Under the pieces are notes generated by a model. It did no database searches, was not told where the DNA came from, and saw nothing but the letters and a program-made list of their open reading frames with translations. From positions 3,491 to 67,490 of the IMG/VR virus record IMGVR_UViG_2140918008_000001: DNA of 64,000 nucleotides; one strand, written 5' to 3'. Below, piece by piece: positions 4,509 through 64,000 of this stretch. Numbering within the stretch: the first letter of the stretch is position 1; every line of letters begins with the position of its first letter. A program made the position numbers and the translations under genes. This stretch comes from a virus (lineage: Duplodnaviria; Caudoviricetes).

Positions 4509-4642
4509 TGTGATATAATATGAACTGTCAAGGAGAACACGGCTTTTTATTTTCTCAACGGACAGTTGCTATCTACAAGAAGCCTGATCTCCTTGACAAG
4601 AATCGGAGAAATGTAGATAGCAACTTTCTGTATCGAGGAGAC
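4509..4642 (+). promoter_or_regulatory. extended -10 promoter plus structured HNH leader, copy 1
   Basis: TGTGATATAAT 4509-19; A 4526-36/4588-98 (11 bp), B 4541-45/4580-84, C 4564-77/4612-25 (14 bp); GAGGAG 4635-40. Confidence 0.75.
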
Positions 4643-5296
4643 ATGGGAAGATTTGTGGATTTATCCGGAAGAAAATTCGGAAAACTTTTGGTAATTAAAC
4701 GAATGGGGACAGGAAATGATGGTCATATTTTTTGGGAATGTGTTTGTGATTGTGGAAATACAAAGACTAAAGTAGTTTCAGGAACTTCTTTAGTACAAGG
4801 TAAAACAAGATCATGTGGGTGTTTATATGTAGGACATCCAACTCATCACTGTAGAAATACTGCAACATATGCTGCCTGGACAAATATCCAACAAAGATGT
4901 GAAAATCCTAATGATGCTTCGTTTAAATTTTATGGAGCAAGAGGGATAACTGTTTGTGACAGATGGAAAGAAGGTTTCCAAAACTTTCTTGACGATATGG
5001 GAATGAAGCCCGGAGGAGGAGAAATTTCCATAGAAAGAATTGACAATAGCAAAGGATACAGTCCAGAAAATTGTCGATGGGCAACTCATAAAGAACAAAT
5101 GAATAATACTAGAATGAATCATTATATAACATTTAATAATGAAACATTGACTATGATGCAATGGTCTGAAAAAACAAATATTCCTTATGACACACTACGG
5201 AATAGAATTAATTCCTATGGATGGGCAATAGAGAAAGCTTTATTTACACCAGTAAGAACAAAACTATCGAACAATAAAATATATGAAAAAGGATAA
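4643..5296 (+). CDS. free-standing HNH-type homing endonuclease
   Basis: DLSGRKFGKLLV, CVCDCG, TRSCGC, QRCENP..YGARGITVCDRW, SIERIDNSKGYSPENCRWAT; start moved to ATG 4643 after the RBS. Confidence 0.85.
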   Translation: MGRFVDLSGRKFGKLLVIKRMGTGNDGHIFWECVCDCGNTKTKVVSGTSLVQGKTRSCGCLYVGHPTHHCRNTATYAAWTNIQQRCENPNDASFKFYGARGITVCDRWKEGFQNFLDDMGMKPGGGEISIERIDNSKGYSPENCRWATHKEQMNNTRMNHYITFNNETLTMMQWSEKTNIPYDTLRNRINSYGWAIEKALFTPVRTKLSNNKIYEKG

Positions 5297-10091: not shown

Positions 10092-10233
10092 TGTGGTATA
10101 ATATGGAGGTCTAGGAAATTTCGAGTGCTTTTTATTTTGTCAACGAAAGGCTGTCCATTTGTGGTAAGCACCGATTTCTTAGACAAAAATCGACAAAAAC
10201 ACAATGGACAGCCTTTTGTATTGAGGAGTGGAA
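10092..10233 (+). promoter_or_regulatory. extended -10 promoter plus structured HNH leader, copy 2
   Basis: TGTGGTATAAT 10092-102; A 10109-19/10174-84, B 10125-30/10166-71, C 10146-63/10200-16; GAGGAG 10223-28. Confidence 0.75.
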
Positions 10234-10863
10234 ATGGGAAGAAAAAATATTGATCGCACAGGTAAGAAATATAACAAACTTCTCGTTATAGAAGAAGCAG
10301 GTAAAGACACAAAAGGAAATTTTTTGTGGAAATGTCAGTGTGATTGCGGAAAAATAATTACAGTTTCGGGAAAAAACCTTAATAATGGGGACGTAAAATC
10401 TTGTGGGTGTTTACGTGATGGACATCCAAAACATGGTCTTGTGTATACTCCCACTTATGAAATATGGTGTGGCATGAAGAAACGGTGTACTAATCCAAAT
10501 TGTGTTGCATGGAAAAATTATGGTGGACGTGGAATTACCCTCTGTGAACGTTGGATGAAATTTGAAAACTTCTATGCCGATATGGGAGAACGTCCTGAAG
10601 GTCTTTCTATTGATCGCATAGATAATAATGGAAATTATGAGCCAGGAAACTGCCGGTGGGCAACCAACACTGAACAAGCAAATAATACTCGCCAAAATCA
10701 TTATCTTACTTACAAAGGGGAAACAAAAACTATCAAGCAATGGGCAAAAGAGTTCAATATGTTATATAGCACTCTATGTGGCAGAATAATAAATTATAAA
10801 TGGCCTATTGAGAAGGCATTAACAGAACCTCTTTATATAGGTGGTCAGTATCCAAAAGCCTAA
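10234..10863 (+). CDS. free-standing HNH-type homing endonuclease (paralog of 4643-5296)
   Basis: DRTGKKYNKLLV, CQCDCG, KSCGC, KRCTNP..YGGRGITLCERW, SIDRIDNNGNYEPGNCRWAT. Confidence 0.85.
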   Translation: MGRKNIDRTGKKYNKLLVIEEAGKDTKGNFLWKCQCDCGKIITVSGKNLNNGDVKSCGCLRDGHPKHGLVYTPTYEIWCGMKKRCTNPNCVAWKNYGGRGITLCERWMKFENFYADMGERPEGLSIDRIDNNGNYEPGNCRWATNTEQANNTRQNHYLTYKGETKTIKQWAKEFNMLYSTLCGRIINYKWPIEKALTEPLYIGGQYPKA

Positions 10864-22887: not shown

Positions 22888-22923
22888 ATTATAGCACATA
22901 TTTTCGACTTGACACAATGTCAA
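22888..22923 (-). promoter_or_regulatory. extended -10 promoter TGTGCTATAAT preceded by the 15-bp palindrome
   Basis: Minus strand: TTGACATTGTGTCAA-GTCGAAAATATGTGCTATAAT; same layout as 44826-44862. Confidence 0.7.
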
Positions 22924-22924
22924 C

Positions 22925-23779
22925 TCACAGAACCGCAAAATCCGACCAGACAAAACTACTGCCCCACCGAAGCCTAAACAACATTTCATTGCCTTTCAAG
23001 TCAAATCCTTCCTCGCTTTCTACTGCCGTAGCACCAACAAAATGTTCTCCTACTGCTAATGGCTCATAAATTACCTTTTGTTTAGCATATCTGATTGAGA
23101 AACATAAATCCATATCTTCATAGGTTCCCCTGCCATAACCAACGAAAAAACCGCCAACTTTGTTCCAAGTATCTCTACGAATAAGAAGCATAGCTCCTGT
23201 CAGTGCTAATGCTTCTCGTCTGATATTAACTTTAGGGTGATCTGCACTCCAGCCTGAGAAGATATGGTACAAATTAGAATTAATTCCCATTTCTAGTCCG
23301 GCGTGCTGGACTTTGCCAGCAGGTCGAGCAGGATCAGTTGAATCCTTTGGAAATAACAGTTTGGGGCCAATAACTCCTATCGTTTCATCTGCTTCCATCT
23401 CATCTATCATCAATTCGACTGATCCTGGTTGCATTACAACATCTGATGTAATAATTGCTATGTACTTTGCTTTACCTTGATTGGCTCCAAGATCACATCC
23501 ACCAGGATAACCTAATCTCGACCTTGTGTGAATAACCCTGAATTTACTGGGAAGATGAAGAGTATACTCCTGTAATTTCTCTTTATCACTCTGATCGTCA
23601 ACCAATGTTACTGTAGATTTCTGATAATATTTTCCTAATGCTTCAGGAATTGCTTCTAAAGTTGCATCAAAGAAGCCAAATCCATTGTGAAAAGGGGTTA
23701 CTACATCACAAATTGGAGGAATATATTTAACTAAGGACTGCGGTTTTTTCGTTGAGTAATTGCGCTTTTGTTTGCTCAT
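22925..23779 (-). CDS. glycosyltransferase family 2
   Basis: DVVTPFHN, LVDDQS, LGYPGGCDLG, TSD, YEDMDLC. Confidence 0.85.
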   Translation of the reverse strand: MSKQKRNYSTKKPQSLVKYIPPICDVVTPFHNGFGFFDATLEAIPEALGKYYQKSTVTLVDDQSDKEKLQEYTLHLPSKFRVIHTRSRLGYPGGCDLGANQGKAKYIAIITSDVVMQPGSVELMIDEMEADETIGVIGPKLLFPKDSTDPARPAGKVQHAGLEMGINSNLYHIFSGWSADHPKVNIRREALALTGAMLLIRRDTWNKVGGFFVGYGRGTYEDMDLCFSIRYAKQKVIYEPLAVGEHFVGATAVESEEGFDLKGNEMLFRLRWGSSFVWSDFAVL

Positions 23780-25225: not shown

Positions 25226-26269
25226 TTATCCTTTCTTGAATACTAATTCATTCCACTGCTTTAGAATATTCTCAAATGAGAAACGTTCTCTCGCCTTCTT
25301 CTGTACCTCAACCTGTCTTAGTTTCATCTCATCTGGATGCAATAGATTATACACGATTTCCTCTACAAACATATCCCTAAATCCTGTCCATCTTACATCT
25401 CCTGGAATTATGCTCCCCATATTCGTTGTTGGTAAACACGAAATATCATTCGTTACTGGATATGCCCCTGCTACCTGGGCTTCTGCCACTGAATAACAAA
25501 AAAGTTCAAAGTAGGTACACGGATAAATTAACATTTGTGCTTGTAATTGCTCTCTAATCAAATCCTTACGCCGGATTGCTCCTTTGAATGTAATATTTGG
25601 TACTCCAATCCATCTTGCCCTATATTGCTCATTCAGTGGAATTACGCTGTTCCATAATCGATAATCCGAAGTAATTACAAGCGAAACATATGGTACTCTA
25701 GCAACAATCTGATCCCATACATCTCTCAACTGATGTAATCCTCGATCTGGTACAGAACTGAATAAACAACGATTGGGAACTTTTTCAATGCTTGTATCGT
25801 CATATTCAGACATTCTTACAGGAAGATCAATTGAAACTACATTTTGTAGATTATAAGTTTTCTTAAGATAATCTGCATGATACGGACTAATCGCCACAAC
25901 TTTCTGACAGAAATTGTTCACATTATTGTAGGGATATTCCTCCATCGTCCATTGATCATGGGTATAAAAGACCTTATATCCTTTTGCTTTGGCTAAAGTA
26001 GAATTAGCCGTTCTAAAAATAATTAAAACATCTCTGTTTTCATCGGGATCGAAATCCTCTTGATCATGTTGGTCAAATTTTGCTGTTGAAGCAACTCTTG
26101 GATTATTGTAAAAACGTACTTCATGACCAGCATCATGGAAAATATTCATCAAATTGAAAATTCCCAATTCTGATCCACCTACACCAAGTCGATCAGGTAA
26201 CTCCCCCTGAATATCCTGTTGAACAATTCCGAGGGGGCTACCATCTGTAGCAAAAATGTCAATTTTCAT
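25226..26269 (-). CDS. glycosyltransferase family 4 (GT-B)
   Basis: GVGGSE, SSVPDRGL, ELFCYSVAEAQVAG. Confidence 0.85.
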   Translation of the reverse strand: MKIDIFATDGSPLGIVQQDIQGELPDRLGVGGSELGIFNLMNIFHDAGHEVRFYNNPRVASTAKFDQHDQEDFDPDENRDVLIIFRTANSTLAKAKGYKVFYTHDQWTMEEYPYNNVNNFCQKVVAISPYHADYLKKTYNLQNVVSIDLPVRMSEYDDTSIEKVPNRCLFSSVPDRGLHQLRDVWDQIVARVPYVSLVITSDYRLWNSVIPLNEQYRARWIGVPNITFKGAIRRKDLIREQLQAQMLIYPCTYFELFCYSVAEAQVAGAYPVTNDISCLPTTNMGSIIPGDVRWTGFRDMFVEEIVYNLLHPDEMKLRQVEVQKKARERFSFENILKQWNELVFKKG

Positions 26270-26465
26270 CTTGTTTTATCCTAGCATTCCATAAGCTAAT
26301 TGCTAATTCAATTTGTGATTCTGTGGGCAATCCCGAATAAATATATACTTTGGGGCCAGAAGCATCACAGGAAGGACATCTTACATATACACAACTAGGA
26401 GTAAAATCTCCCTGCATTTCAGAAATATTTCCACAAAAAGGACACTTATCAATATTATCTCTCAT
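26259..26465 (-). CDS. Lar restriction-alleviation-like zinc-finger protein
   Basis: KCPFCG..CPSCDASGP..AISLWNAR. Confidence 0.65.
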   Translation of the reverse strand: MRDNIDKCPFCGNISEMQGDFTPSCVYVRCPSCDASGPKVYIYSGLPTESQIELAISLWNARIKQDEN

Positions 26466-26468
26466 ATC

Positions 26469-26789
26469 TTATTTTCCCTTTGGCTTAATTACATCTAAAA
26501 CAGAAAGTAGACCTGAACGATAACCCCACTGCCAATTATCAATAGGATTGAAAATCATATTTGATTTCAAGGCATCTACAATAGCTTGTAATTGAGACTC
26601 AGCTTTCTCAGCACGATGTTGCCAATCTGCATAATTATCATGATCTTGCTCAATACGTTTTTCAAGTCCTGCAATCTTACTACGATAAATATCTCCCTCA
26701 CAACCAGTTTTGAGACATCGCATCTCAATAATAGTTCCATGAGATTCCTTTTTTATATATTCAGCATATGCTTCTTCAAGTGTAGTCAT
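26469..26789 (-). CDS. hypothetical coiled-coil protein
   Basis: ORF in operon. Confidence 0.55.
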   Translation of the reverse strand: MTTLEEAYAEYIKKESHGTIIEMRCLKTGCEGDIYRSKIAGLEKRIEQDHDNYADWQHRAEKAESQLQAIVDALKSNMIFNPIDNWQWGYRSGLLSVLDVIKPKGK

Positions 26790-27286
26790 TCTATTTTATC
26801 CTCATATTCTTTATCTCTATTGATCCACTCTTCAGGAAAATTGAGCCAAGCAAACTCCCCAAATAACTCTACGGCCCTCTTGTCGTAAACATGAGCAGCC
26901 TCTTCAGATGTTTTGAAACTTCCTAAATGCATTTCCTTAAAAAATAATTTTATTCTGGAAAACCACACATGATCTCTCATGCAATAAGTAATTCCTTTAA
27001 ATCCAGAGGTATTATTTTTAGAAAGAGGCCGATTTCGCTGATTTTCAGATTTATTACATAATCTTAAATTACTTCTGCAATTGTTAAAAGTATTTCTATC
27101 AATATGATCTACTTGTTTTCCTTCTGGAGTAGTCAAAACAAGATGATGTAAGTAAATATCTTCTCCTTTAGAAGTTCGTAAAGCATATCCGCCTTTACCA
27201 CAACGCCATTTCCACTGATTCAAATACTCAAACATATCGTCATCAACTAGAGTAACTTTTCCTTGTGTCAAAGGTATTTCTTTCAT
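26786..27286 (-). CDS. HNH endonuclease with C-terminal AP2 domain
   Basis: KEIPLTQGKVTLVDD, VDHIDRNTFNNCRSNLR, NNTSGFKG, AAHVYDKRAVELFGEFAWLNFP; ATG 27286 after AAGGA. Confidence 0.9.
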   Translation of the reverse strand: MKEIPLTQGKVTLVDDDMFEYLNQWKWRCGKGGYALRTSKGEDIYLHHLVLTTPEGKQVDHIDRNTFNNCRSNLRLCNKSENQRNRPLSKNNTSGFKGITYCMRDHVWFSRIKLFFKEMHLGSFKTSEEAAHVYDKRAVELFGEFAWLNFPEEWINRDKEYEDKIE

Positions 27287-27418
27287 TTTTCCTTTTAACA
27301 AAGACCTGCTATCTACCTTTTCCAGTTCTTGCTGATGGAACAGGGCGTATGTAGATAGCAGGTCTTTGTTGGAAAATAAAAACGCCTCACATCCCATCAG
27401 CAATCCTATTATACCACA
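27287..27418 (-). promoter_or_regulatory. extended -10 promoter plus structured HNH leader, copy 3
   Basis: TGTGGTATAAT 27418-408; A 27403-392/27340-329, B 27386-83/27347-44, C 27370-51/27316-297 (20 bp perfect). Confidence 0.75.
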
Positions 27419-44825: not shown

Positions 44826-44862
44826 ATTATAGCACATATATTCGGAATTGACACAGTGTCAA
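44826..44862 (-). promoter_or_regulatory. extended -10 promoter for the head operon, preceded by the 15-bp palindrome
   Basis: Minus strand: TTGACACTGTGTCAA-TTCCGAATATATGTGCTATAAT. Confidence 0.7.
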
Positions 44863-45533
44863 CCTTCCTGATACCACATTGTCTCCATTGTTCTATGTGC
44901 TACACCATCCAGTCTAATAAGATTTATTGAATCTATCCAAGTGTCACTAGAATTTCCACACACAATAACCTGACCTTTACGAGATTTACTCCACAAAGCC
45001 AATTTTGAATAATCAATCAATTTATTATTGAACTTATACTGATCTCCACCTTTTTGATATGGGGGGTCAATAAACCAAGTTGCAGATATGTTATCAATAC
45101 AATTATATTCCCCCAAAATAAATTTCCAGTGTTTTATTTTATATAAACTATCAGCGATTTCATTCTTTTTATATTCCTGAGAATGGGGACGTAAAGTTGT
45201 TCGCCATCGTGAAGCATGTTTTCTAGGTGAACTTACTCCAGCGGCAATTATAAAACCAATCAACCACTTTGCCTCATCACAATCCCAATGATACTCATCA
45301 ATACTTTTTCCTAATTCAATTTGAGGCAAAGACAGAATATCTTGCTTTGAACATTGTTGTAACCACTTCCAAAGACGAATAATAACCGCATATTTATCAA
45401 TTAAAATAACATTACGATCATAATATTTCAAACTATACTGTGCAGCACCAGCAAAAGGTTCAATAATTGTGTCCTGAAGGGGAACAGGATATTTTCCAAC
45501 AATTTTCAATTTTGTTCCATAATATGACCACAT
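44859..45533 (-). CDS. DNA adenine methyltransferase (Dam/D12-class-like)
   Basis: YYGTK, EPFAGAA, FIDPPY. Confidence 0.85.
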   Translation of the reverse strand: MWSYYGTKLKIVGKYPVPLQDTIIEPFAGAAQYSLKYYDRNVILIDKYAVIIRLWKWLQQCSKQDILSLPQIELGKSIDEYHWDCDEAKWLIGFIIAAGVSSPRKHASRWRTTLRPHSQEYKKNEIADSLYKIKHWKFILGEYNCIDNISATWFIDPPYQKGGDQYKFNNKLIDYSKLALWSKSRKGQVIVCGNSSDTWIDSINLIRLDGVAHRTMETMWYQEG

Positions 45534-47063: not shown

Positions 47064-47664
47064 CTAATTCCTCTTTATTAGTATCAGAAAACTCTGCATC
47101 AACTGTTTCTTCTACATCTTTCTCAATAATTGATCCTGTCATTCGTAAAGCTTCATCAGGATTTATCTTTGCAAGTAATTTTCCTACAATATCCCCTAAT
47201 TCCTCATCTTTCAACTCAGCAATTTTCAATAATGCATCTGGTATACCTCTTGCATTTCGCTCAATCTCTACACCTGTTTTGATTGCTCCAAGAGCTACAC
47301 GATCACTATCAATTGGATGTGTGTCAAAATATTCAGCTCCAGCATCTTGTAACATCTTACCAAGATCAGCCTGTCTACGCAACATCTCAACTTTTTCATT
47401 GATTGCTTGTATTTCAATTTGTCTGGATACTTCAGCATCTAAAACATCCGCCCGTTCATTCCAAGCAAATTTCGTAGGCCATTTAGTTAACATCGCATAA
47501 TGAACAGTCTCACCTGATGCTTCATCTGCTGAAACATGCTTCATTAATTCCGTTGCAGATGGACGACCTAATTTATACCAGAGTAGAAAACACTTCTCAA
47601 CGTAATCCATTGAGTAAGCATTACTATTTGATATTTTTATTCCTAGATCATTGGCTGGTGCCAT
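47038..47664 (-). CDS. probable terminase small subunit
   Basis: Directly upstream of terL; N-terminal HTH-like segment, W..RAD..D, helical core, acidic tail. Confidence 0.6.
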   Translation of the reverse strand: MAPANDLGIKISNSNAYSMDYVEKCFLLWYKLGRPSATELMKHVSADEASGETVHYAMLTKWPTKFAWNERADVLDAEVSRQIEIQAINEKVEMLRRQADLGKMLQDAGAEYFDTHPIDSDRVALGAIKTGVEIERNARGIPDALLKIAELKDEELGDIVGKLLAKINPDEALRMTGSIIEKDVEETVDAEFSDTNKEELDADSQTDE

Positions 47665-47905
47665 ATTTTTCCAGAAATTCTCTGCGTAGTCGTAATAACT
47701 CTGTTACAAAATTGATTGCTCCATGCTGATGTATTTCTTCATGGCAAGCATGACACAGTGGAACACGATTTTCAAACTTCTCTGCTATTTTACCACAGGA
47801 TCGAGGAAGTATTTCATGAACGGTTACTGCTCTCTTATTACAACGAATACATCGTCCATGAAATAACCTCATGATCTCATTGTTTTGCTCTTTAGAGAAC
47901 TGCAC
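47648..47905 (-). CDS. small HNH nuclease (packaging-associated, HK97 gp74-like position)
   Basis: CIRC..VHEILPRS..NRVPLCHACHEEIH next to terminase. Confidence 0.75.
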   Translation of the reverse strand: MQFSKEQNNEIMRLFHGRCIRCNKRAVTVHEILPRSCGKIAEKFENRVPLCHACHEEIHQHGAINFVTELLRLRREFLEKYGTSQ

Positions 47906-48582: not shown

Positions 48583-48754
48583 TTGACATAAACATAAAAA
48601 GGATGTATACTAAAAATGTTGAGGGTGTAGCATCCCAAGACAAGAAAGCCATACTGCATCTACCCAAACCACTATTTATCTTTGGTTTGTAGTCTCCTAT
48701 GTGGATGCAGGATGCTACAGACTACATACCAAAAATAAGGAGTGGTTTTTGTTT
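48583..48754 (+). promoter_or_regulatory. sigma70 promoter plus structured HNH leader, copy 4
   Basis: TTGACA-17-TATACT; A 48626-35/48710-19, B 48655-63/48701-09, C 48666-95/48719-48 containing RBS AAGGAG. Confidence 0.7.
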
Positions 48755-49315
48755 ATGCCCAATCACAATGCAAAACCAGAGAGAAATCAAGAAATTAGAG
48801 ATATGTGGAAAGATGGAAAAACATTAAAAACCATAGGAATAAAATTTGGGATTACAAAAAGACGAGTAAGTTTTTTAATTAAAGGAGTAGATAGAAAGAC
48901 AGCCCCCAAAACATATTCTTATTCATATGTTCGTCCAAGACACAACAAATATTATGGAATAAGGCATAGTGACACGGTAAAATTTTGGGAACATGTAAAA
49001 ATTGGAAATAAAGATGAATGTTGGGAATGGTTAGGGGGGAAATCACACGGATATGGCACAGTAATAATAAATACAGAGCATAAACAAGCCCATGATTTTG
49101 CCTATGAGTGGGTAAATGGGCCTATTCCCATAGGGTTAGAGGCATGTCATAAATGTAATAATAAAGGGTGCTGTAATCCAAATCATATCTACGCAGGAAC
49201 ACGACAACAAAATATGGATGATTTGCATGAACGGTATGTACGAGGAGAACTAGTTCGGATAGGTAAATATTACCCAAGACGACCAAAACAAGATAAAAAC
49301 ATAGCGACCCCATAA
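48755..49315 (+). CDS. HTH + HNH (HNH_3-like) endonuclease
   Basis: RNQEIRDMW..TLKTIGIKFGITKRRV HTH; ECWEW, AHDFAYE, ACHKCNNKGCCNPNHI..GTRQQN. Confidence 0.85.
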   Translation: MPNHNAKPERNQEIRDMWKDGKTLKTIGIKFGITKRRVSFLIKGVDRKTAPKTYSYSYVRPRHNKYYGIRHSDTVKFWEHVKIGNKDECWEWLGGKSHGYGTVIINTEHKQAHDFAYEWVNGPIPIGLEACHKCNNKGCCNPNHIYAGTRQQNMDDLHERYVRGELVRIGKYYPRRPKQDKNIATP

Positions 49316-63599: not shown

Positions 63600-64000
63600 A
63601 TGTGTAACTTTTTCTCAATTGTAACTGATCCCGAAAACTGCGCCGGAAAGCGTTTTTATTTTGACTGGGAATGGCGCAAGGCGCACATCGACGCCGAGAA
63701 CGATAGCCATTCGACCATCTGCAAGCATTTTGGACTGGCAGAGGACGTATGTAATAAATTTGAGTACAACCCACTGACCAAAGAATTTGTCGTCGACCAG
63801 ATCAACAGCCCTACGAATGATCGGGCGCAGGTCGAGGAGTGGTTCAGTAACCTGGACTACAAGCGGATCGTTGAGCCGTTAATTATCAAGTCGATAACCC
63901 GCCCGTTTGATCTACTGGAGGTGACGGTTACGGACGAGCATATTCAACTATTAAAAGATTGGGCCAGCGTGGGGGACAGCGTGTGGGCCAGCGTGTGGGC
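63600..64000 (+). CDS. partial CDS running into a tetrapeptide (12-nt) repeat region
   Basis: MCNFFSIVTDP..DSHSTI..NKFEYNPLT...KDWASVGDSVWASVW; GC-richer than flanks; truncated by window end. Confidence 0.7.
   Translation, partial: MCNFFSIVTDPENCAGKRFYFDWEWRKAHIDAENDSHSTICKHFGLAEDVCNKFEYNPLTKEFVVDQINSPTNDRAQVEEWFSNLDYKRIVEPLIIKSITRPFDLLEVTVTDEHIQLLKDWASVGDSVWASVW

Follow-up and report, generated by a model that had tools for sequence, protein, structure and literature searches.

A candidate two-fold leader RNA ahead of an HNH-AP2 endonuclease gene of a tailed phage, and its occurrence before unrelated genes

Free-standing homing endonuclease genes need quiet expression in order to spare the phage that carries them. 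To our knowledge, the only solutions described so far are the hairpins of T-even phages, each of which is private to its gene. The window analyzed here, a stretch of 64,000 nucleotides from a phage genome of 67.5 kb, contains an endonuclease gene inside a glycosyltransferase cluster, preceded by what had been predicted to be the third copy of a leader that is shuffled between endonuclease genes. This locus raises the question of whether one and the same leader is indeed passed between unrelated genes, and how such a leader might act on the gene behind it.

Every element that the original prediction had placed at 27418-27284 was present when the minus strand was read. The parts of leader copy 3 are the following, as taken from the sequence:

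27424-27422, minus strand: stop codon TGA of the upstream ORF
27418-27408, minus strand: extended -10 promoter-like element TGTGGTATAAT, 3 nt past the upstream stop codon
27403-27392, minus strand: 5' arm of helix A (A5'), TTGCTGATGGGA
27386-27383, minus strand: 5' arm of helix B (B5'), GGCG
27382-27371, minus strand: U-rich linker TTTTTATTTTCC, which includes arm d
27376-27371, minus strand: arm d of helix D, UUUUCC, the 3' portion of the U-rich linker
27370-27351, minus strand: 5' arm of helix C (C5'), AACAAAGACCTGCTATCTAC, with an A-rich beginning (AACAAAG)
27347-27344, minus strand: 3' arm of helix B (B3'), CGCC, within the loop of helix C
27340-27329, minus strand: 3' arm of helix A (A3'), TTCCATCAGCAA, within the loop of helix C
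27328-27317, minus strand: 12-nt A-rich linker GAACTGGAAAAG, which includes arm d'
27323-27318, minus strand: arm d' of helix D, GGAAAA, within the A-rich linker
27316-27297, minus strand: 3' arm of helix C (C3'), GTAGATAGCAGGTCTTTGTT, a GC-rich core GCAGGTC followed by the U-tract TTTGTT
27294-27290, minus strand: ribosome-binding site (RBS) AAGGA, preceded by AA after C3'
27286-27284, minus strand: start codon ATG, its frame confirmed by Pfam and PHROG matches

Helix A comprises 12 pairs, one of them G-U. Helix C is perfect over 20/20 pairs, as had been claimed, and its repeat is the longest inverted repeat within the window. The 1-nt gap proposed between helix C and the RBS holds as an adjacency, the distance being 2 nt to AAGGA and 0-1 nt if the whole A-run is counted as the site. 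The leader folds with -49.9 kcal/mol (z = -5.9 vs. shuffles), and A5' begins 4 nt past the -10 element, approximately at the predicted transcript start.

A search with nhmmer over the 67.5-kb genome revealed exactly three leader copies, which are homologous. They and the ORFs behind them are listed here, with scores from the covariance model R1 (see below):

4509-4645, plus strand: leader copy 1 (131.6 bits), immediately past polA
4643-5296, plus strand: phrog_374-type HNH ORF behind copy 1 (PHROG profile)
10092-10236, plus strand: leader copy 2 (107.2 bits)
10234-10863, plus strand: phrog_374-type HNH ORF behind copy 2 (PHROG profile)
27418-27284, minus strand: leader copy 3 (128.9 bits, E ~1e-23), with the element order of the family
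27286-26786, minus strand: HNH_3 + AP2-like endonuclease ORF behind copy 3, 166 aa (Pfam, PHROG)

The distance from the upstream stop codon to the -10 element is exactly 3 nt in all three copies. The ORF behind copy 3 matches Pfam HNH_3 (E 6.8e-9) and phrog_99. Its assignment to the HNH_3+AP2 type is thus direct for the HNH_3 part; the AP2 part is below the Pfam threshold in this ORF and is seen in its homologues (41-55% identity), which carry PF00847 and PF13392. The closest HNH-AP2 homologues are 50-55% identical. Copies 1 and 2 precede ORFs with 51% identity to each other. That the copy 3 ORF belongs to a different family is borne out by BLASTP, which detects no similarity to the copy 1 ORF (E 0.13), but both match the phrog_374 profile and thus have a distant HNH core in common.

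The setting in a glycosyltransferase cluster proved correct: GT2, GT1/GT4, Glyco_trans_1_2, and RmlD-like genes flank the copy 3 locus on both sides. The ATG of the ORF that comes next overlaps the stop codon of the copy 3 ORF. The HNH-AP2 gene is immediately followed by a weak DUF7760-like ORF of 106 aa (window 26469-26789, minus strand), and a Lar-type restriction-alleviation ORF of 68 aa (26259-26465, minus strand; E 2e-8) is also placed between glycosyltransferase genes. Gene callers lengthen the copy 3 ORF into the leader (27286-27403, minus strand), so that the database protein P0001 has 203 aa; counted from the ATG that is preceded by a Shine-Dalgarno sequence (SD), the real length is 166 aa. 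The copy 1 ORF is likewise lengthened into its leader (4520-4642, plus strand; 258 aa in the ORF list vs. 217 aa). Awareness of the leader is of practical use in correcting such over-extension.

A fourth copy, suggested at 48583-48757, has no R1 match at E values up to 1 and is at most an analogue. This leader-like region precedes one of two further HNH-type ORFs in the window (48701-49315, plus strand, 204 aa); the other is at 47648-47905 (minus strand, 85 aa). Megablast of 20 kb against phage records returned no close relatives of this phage, and protein-pattern scans of IMG/VR with polA and the upstream ORF returned no phage relatives.

The leader occurs well beyond this genome. Ten additional leaders were found outside the window, which brings the family to 13 members from nine phage records. 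A pattern from the three copies yielded two real leaders, L278 and L280, in metagenome contigs, which precede an HNH-AP2 ORF 41% identical to the copy 3 ORF and a small HNH ORF, respectively. Leader L152, ahead of an HNH_3+AP2 ORF, came from a helix scan of regions upstream of HNH homologues. These six leaders (copies 1-3, L278, L280, and L152) served to build the covariance model R1, which, together with one more pattern scan, led to L294, L304, L309, L299, and L297. Whole-record searches then added second copies, L320 and L318, in two of the records, so that L294/L320 and L299/L318 are pairs from the same record. The 13 members score 37-132 bits with R1. A three-copy nhmmer profile missed every distant member, for which the helix scan and R1 were required. 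A stricter DNA pattern found nothing real in viral or genome contigs and two members in metagenomes, and two loose DNA patterns gave, among the matches listed, only chance matches as scored by the helix script. The patterns that led to several of the members had the -10 element, the U-run, CAAC, or the TGTCACA arms fixed, so that the conservation of these motifs is partly built in.

All 13 leaders are directly 5' of an ORF on the same strand, their 3' end abutting its SD. The ORFs are of the following types, among them four HNH families:

HNH_3+AP2: four leaders, plus one before a 25-aa remnant
phrog_374 HNH: two leaders
small HNH: one leader
phrog_2340 endonuclease: one leader
GIY-YIG: one leader
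T5orf172: one leader
replication initiator: one leader
phrog_4652, function unknown: one leader

The GC content of the leaders and of the two metagenome contigs (L278 and L280) is 36-47%, and these two contigs have nothing further in common with this phage. No Rfam 15 family matches the leaders, which may have been listed before in the IMG/VR structured-RNA catalogue (PMC10690425). At the gathering threshold, Rfam reports only tRNA in the whole window, and copies 2 and 3 as well as L152, when scanned permissively, gave matches at chance level only.

In L304 (7731-7941, equal to L317:1501-1711), the ORF behind an intact leader (67 bits) has only 25 aa, namely approximately the first 13 and the last 10 residues of an HNH-AP2 protein; here the nuclease has decayed and its leader is preserved. 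About 100 nt beyond this remnant are an ERF-like ORF of 203 aa and an SSB-like ORF of 137 aa. In L278 (84-293 and 738-1310), a short ORF start (MLEKTCYSCKSTKP...) is found on one side of the cassette and a long CxxC...KP-repeat ORF on the other, and the leader with its HNH-AP2 gene may have split a gene.

The comparison of leader and ORF phylogenies that had been proposed as a check of shuffling resulted in incongruence. The 13 leaders were aligned in three ways; these alignments are short (~120-140 columns) and their paired columns are non-independent. In every tree the three leaders of the window form one clade (ultrafast bootstrap 88-97, SH-aLRT 94-96), in which copies 1 and 2 are sisters (83-91) and copy 3 is sister to both. 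A forced clade of HNH-AP2 leaders (copy 3, L278, L152, L294, and L304) is rejected (p-AU 0.010-0.032), and smaller leader data sets gave the same result. For the other genomes that hold a pair of copies (L294/L320 and L299/L318), the tree tests gave p values of 0.3-0.5.

Irrespective of the trees, a homologous leader precedes at least seven mutually unalignable ORF types, which joint descent of leader and ORF fails to explain. The leaders of this genome group by genome rather than by ORF family, which points, within this phage lineage, to exchange or conversion of either the module of about 135 bp or its ORF. Shuffling as originally proposed therefore stands as far as exchange is concerned, but it is not confined to endonuclease genes, a replication-initiator gene and a gene of unknown function being served as well. 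Given at least seven unrelated gene types, the leader behaves like a control module that is portable and serves, for the most part, selfish nuclease genes.

The helix C sequence said to be shared by copies 1 and 3 does exist, as the exact 11-mer TGCTATCTACA, which occurs in copy 1 at 4567-4577, but it is a weak clue to exchange. L278, L152, and L320 have CTATCT-like cores too, and a tree that groups copies 1 and 3 as a clade is rejected (p 0.03), so that the 11-mer looks ancestral and copy 2 divergent.

The arms of the leader pair far better than expected by chance. In copy 3, the duplex energies are -27.0 kcal/mol for helix A/B and -32.5 kcal/mol for helix C, each equalled by 0 of 500 shuffles, and in six leaders both helices beat 500/500 shuffles. 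With 11 leaders in a plain MAFFT alignment, 91% of the cells pair, as compared to 41-51% with slid partners; the former figure is inflated because the column pairs were chosen by scanning the same alignment for good pairing. Counts of two-sided changes are less affected by that choice. Such changes are seen in 19/27 pairs of the 11 leaders (reached by 0/500 shuffles), with 7/11 pairs in helix A and 10 of the 12 counted pairs in helix C, and the count from five leaders is similar. Across the family, helix A/B spans 16-19 bp. Helix C spans 19-22 bp in 11/13 members; it has ~15 bp in L304 and 13 bp in L297.

A further helix, D, is formed by the pyrimidines that immediately precede C5' and the purines that immediately precede C3'. 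Its pairing is leader-specific, the mean energy being -6.4 kcal/mol with the own partner vs. -2.3 kcal/mol with those of other leaders (0/5000 permutations). Arms d and d' co-vary: UUUUCC/GGAAAA in copy 3 corresponds to UUUCUC/GAGAAA, UUUUGUC/GACAAAA, AUUCCGA/UCGGAAU, UUCGCC/GGCGAA, UUAUUCC/GGAAUAA, and GUUUCU/GGAAAC in other members.

The helices contain 11 G-U pairs, in both orientations, and in 6/6 leaders the sense strand gives a more stable fold than the antisense strand. We thus assign the structure to the RNA of the sense transcript. These two observations also make a purely DNA-level element, that is, a cruciform, homing, or recombination site that borders the cassette and involves no RNA structure, hardly credible. 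Such an element would account for the long inverted repeats and for the exact border position, 3 nt past the upstream stop codon in copies 1-3. On the other strand, however, the G-U pairs would become A-C mismatches, and the wholesale replacement of arms with complementarity kept is a mark of RNA pairing rather than of a protein-binding site.

The -10 element is of the TGnTATAAT type in most of the 13 leaders and a variant in four, two of which also deviate from TATAAT; it probably acts as a promoter, to judge by its sequence. A5' starts 4-7 nt past it in every member, so the 5' end of the transcript would be buried in helix A, which could stabilize the RNA too. The invariant columns of the 13 leaders are chiefly the -10 element and the ends of helix A, plus one U-tract position.

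Helix C has the look of a terminator, with an A-rich start, a GC-rich core, and a U-tract. At least five T are found among the 8 nt after the GC core in 13/13 leaders (three of the rows counted by eye), as compared to 8% of background 8-mers. The basal pairs of C hold the orientation A 5'/U 3', whereas the other pairs flip freely. A GC stem followed by a U-tract is what intrinsic terminators have; their loop, on the other hand, measures 3-8 nt, that of helix C 30-45 nt. A simple terminator scan did not call helix C, and copies 1 and 3 have modest U-tracts.

The arms follow one another as a, d, c, a', d', c', which makes all three helices cross. A/B and D, which cross and both co-vary, qualify as an H-type pseudoknot. 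Helices D and C have no nucleotides in common, but the linkers d-c and d'-c' measure 0-2 nt, and a 6-bp D and a 20-bp C should therefore not be complete at the same time; this exclusivity is a geometric argument from the lengths of the linkers. In folding calculations, prefixes of 80-100 nt adopt A/B and full-length leaders adopt C, and the two constrained states (A/B vs. C) differ by only 3-13 kcal/mol. Findpath barriers of 27-45 kcal/mol from a nested model are not meaningful for a pseudoknotted pathway and were set aside. As D and C would be mutually exclusive, the RNA most likely switches between the A/B+D pseudoknot and hairpin C. It may instead form a single large A/B+C pseudoknot in place of two folds.

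We consider it probable that copy 3 is a member of a family of self-promoted, structured cis leaders with two folds, which are modular and have been recombined onto unrelated ORFs. The helices, their covariation, the crossing order, and the modular distribution are direct observations; from these we infer the use of the promoter, the transcript ends, which fold is the on-state, the choice between termination and translation, and what tips the balance. The leaders, ~115-125 nt in length, would be transcribed from their own promoter and act in cis on the following gene. Fold 1 would form first during transcription: the 5'-terminal helix A/B closes its loop and d pairs with d' past A3', which would complete the H-type pseudoknot before c' is made. 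Fold 2 would be hairpin C, whose arms are directly 3' of d and d'. Because C looks like a terminator and its base abuts the RBS, fold 2 would silence the gene, as an off-state that ends transcription, hinders the ribosome, or both, and fold 1 would let expression through. Such a gate might hold a potentially harmful nuclease to low or brief expression. The best reading, we infer, is an attenuator or a translation gate that acts in cis. Of the two, the attenuator is favored by the conserved terminator-like build of C, given that specificity of pairing to the RBS found no support. A leader peptide was considered and rejected: there is no conserved frame, and in copy 2 a stop codon interrupts the frame after three codons.

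That missing specificity bears on the alternative of a purely translational control of the T4 type, in which C plus a pairing of the U-rich stretch with SD and AUG hides the RBS, A/B+D frees it, and termination plays no role. The minimum-energy folds of copies 1-3 indeed pair a pyrimidine stretch with SD and AUG, the mean unpaired probability of the initiation region is 0.21-0.49 in the C state vs. 0.40-0.88 in the A state, and I-TevI, I-TevII, I-TevIII, segB, and mobE provide a precedent (PMC2988022). Yet the specific part of the RBS masking that these folds suggest finds no support: as a dedicated anti-SD, the U-tract performs no better than shuffles, partners from other leaders pair just as well as the own one (p 0.22), and the U-rich/SD pairing lacks covariation. 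C itself ends 0-5 nt before the SD, the promoter is upstream of all arms, which is not the T4 arrangement, and the orientation-locked A-tract/U-tract at the base of C is left unexplained. We therefore regard this alternative as possible, with the balance of evidence against it.

Two other explanations give helix C a different role. The leader could be a small-RNA gene, in which the promoter and terminator C delimit a structured RNA of ~120 nt that acts in trans or is the RNA partner of a mobile cassette, the ORF being expressed by read-through. Its own promoter-like element, a terminator-like 3' end, U-rich and A-rich single-stranded stretches, and the persistence of an intact leader ahead of an HNH-AP2 ORF reduced to 25 aa (L304/L317) are all compatible with this; but its 3' end abuts the SD of a same-strand ORF in 13/13 cases, and the leaders have no conserved unpaired seed candidate, their variable parts being in helices, which makes a small-RNA gene improbable. 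About two helical turns are the minimal length of an RNase III substrate. Helix C, with 19-22 bp in 11/13 members, reaches this length, and A5' starts at the predicted +1 (4-7 nt past the -10 element) in all members, so one might think of a processing or stability element in which C is an RNase III site, a flush 5' helix A protects the end, and mRNA lifetime is controlled. We consider this very unlikely, because it explains neither helix D and its exclusion by C nor the conserved U-tract, and because C has merely 13 bp in L297.

The two-fold cis leader that we prefer resembles several known systems in part. Homing endonuclease genes of T-even phages are restrained by hairpins at their ribosome-binding sites, with I-TevI, I-TevII, I-TevIII, segB, and mobE of Aeh1 as examples, and seg43(25) of Aeromonas phage 25 has a stable hairpin that ends just upstream of the RBS (PMC2988022). 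As in those phages, a very stable hairpin, thought to be restraining, is found here at or just before the RBS of a free-standing nuclease gene, and copy 3 is directly upstream of an ORF of the homing type; as in seg43(25), the stem stops just upstream of the RBS and does not cover it. T-even hairpins typically contain the SD, whereas C ends 2 nt before AAGGA. In addition, the promoter is here upstream of the whole structure rather than inside it (a T4-like internal promoter was looked for and discarded, as the region between the two C arms has no conserved -10 element), the hairpin is crossed by A/B and D and has a U-tract, and one leader family, with members in nine phage records, serves seven or more unrelated ORF types.

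With bacterial attenuators and riboswitch platforms, the leader has in common that it is self-promoted and has two exclusive folds, the 3' one being terminator-like and in front of the gene. It differs from the attenuators in its loop of 30-45 nt and in an exclusion that stems from pseudoknot geometry and not from common nucleotides. The 13-leader alignment has no conserved unpaired positions of the kind that form a ligand pocket, and thus nothing points to a small-molecule ligand. The leaders of T4 gene 32 and of E. coli rpsO/S15 likewise have a 5'-leader pseudoknot that adjoins the initiation region. Both are bound by the proteins they encode; autoregulation by the product is unlikely here, because the leader serves unrelated proteins. 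The only S15-leader match was a single weak one in an Rfam scan (E 3.5), elsewhere in the locus.

The int-alpA RNA (RF02996) is another promoter-proximal structured RNA, found immediately 5' of a phrog_374-like HNH homologue in another phage contig (L128:1380-1448, 42.7 bits, above the gathering score). Sequence and fold are unrelated to our leaders, however: R1 has no match there, and Rfam has none to the leaders. A RAGATH-31 RNA is nearby at L128:3558-3612. In L129, a similar motif, GGATAGGGT.GCTCCCGA, is placed behind a TGATATAAT element.

What distinguishes the family is that a single RNA design, absent from Rfam, is reused across phage contigs from soil, freshwater, and other sources. If the two-fold model is true, the leader would be a compact and transferable expression gate, a case of a pseudoknot that blocks a terminator by geometry, and a marker for selfish cassettes and their borders in phage genomes. 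A more far-reaching idea, which we put forward only tentatively, is that promoter and leader together form a mobile "safety catch" that moves between unrelated selfish genes and phages, a bistable three-helix RNA in which a pseudoknot competes by geometry with a long-loop terminator and the state is set by a phage or host factor or by the timing of folding. An RNA switch of this kind would represent a new class, with a new exclusion principle.

Some other features of the window deserve mention. At 54073-53990 (minus strand), TGTGCTATAAT is immediately followed by a 9-bp hairpin (AAGAGTGAT/ATCACTCTT) and TTATTTTATTTTCT; this hairpin is promoter-proximal, terminator-like, and upstream of the ORF at 54024-53395, and R1 matches the region weakly (22 bits, E 0.065). 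At 22898-22935 and 44836-44870 (both minus strand), the palindrome TTGACAyTGTGTCAA, which looks like an operator by its sequence, precedes TGTGCTATAAT promoters. Finally, GC-rich short tandem repeats (GGGCCAGCGTGTGGGACAGCGTG...) are found at both ends of this genome of 37.5% GC (G000:C1:1-60 and 67430-67490), the right end corresponding to window positions 63940-64000.
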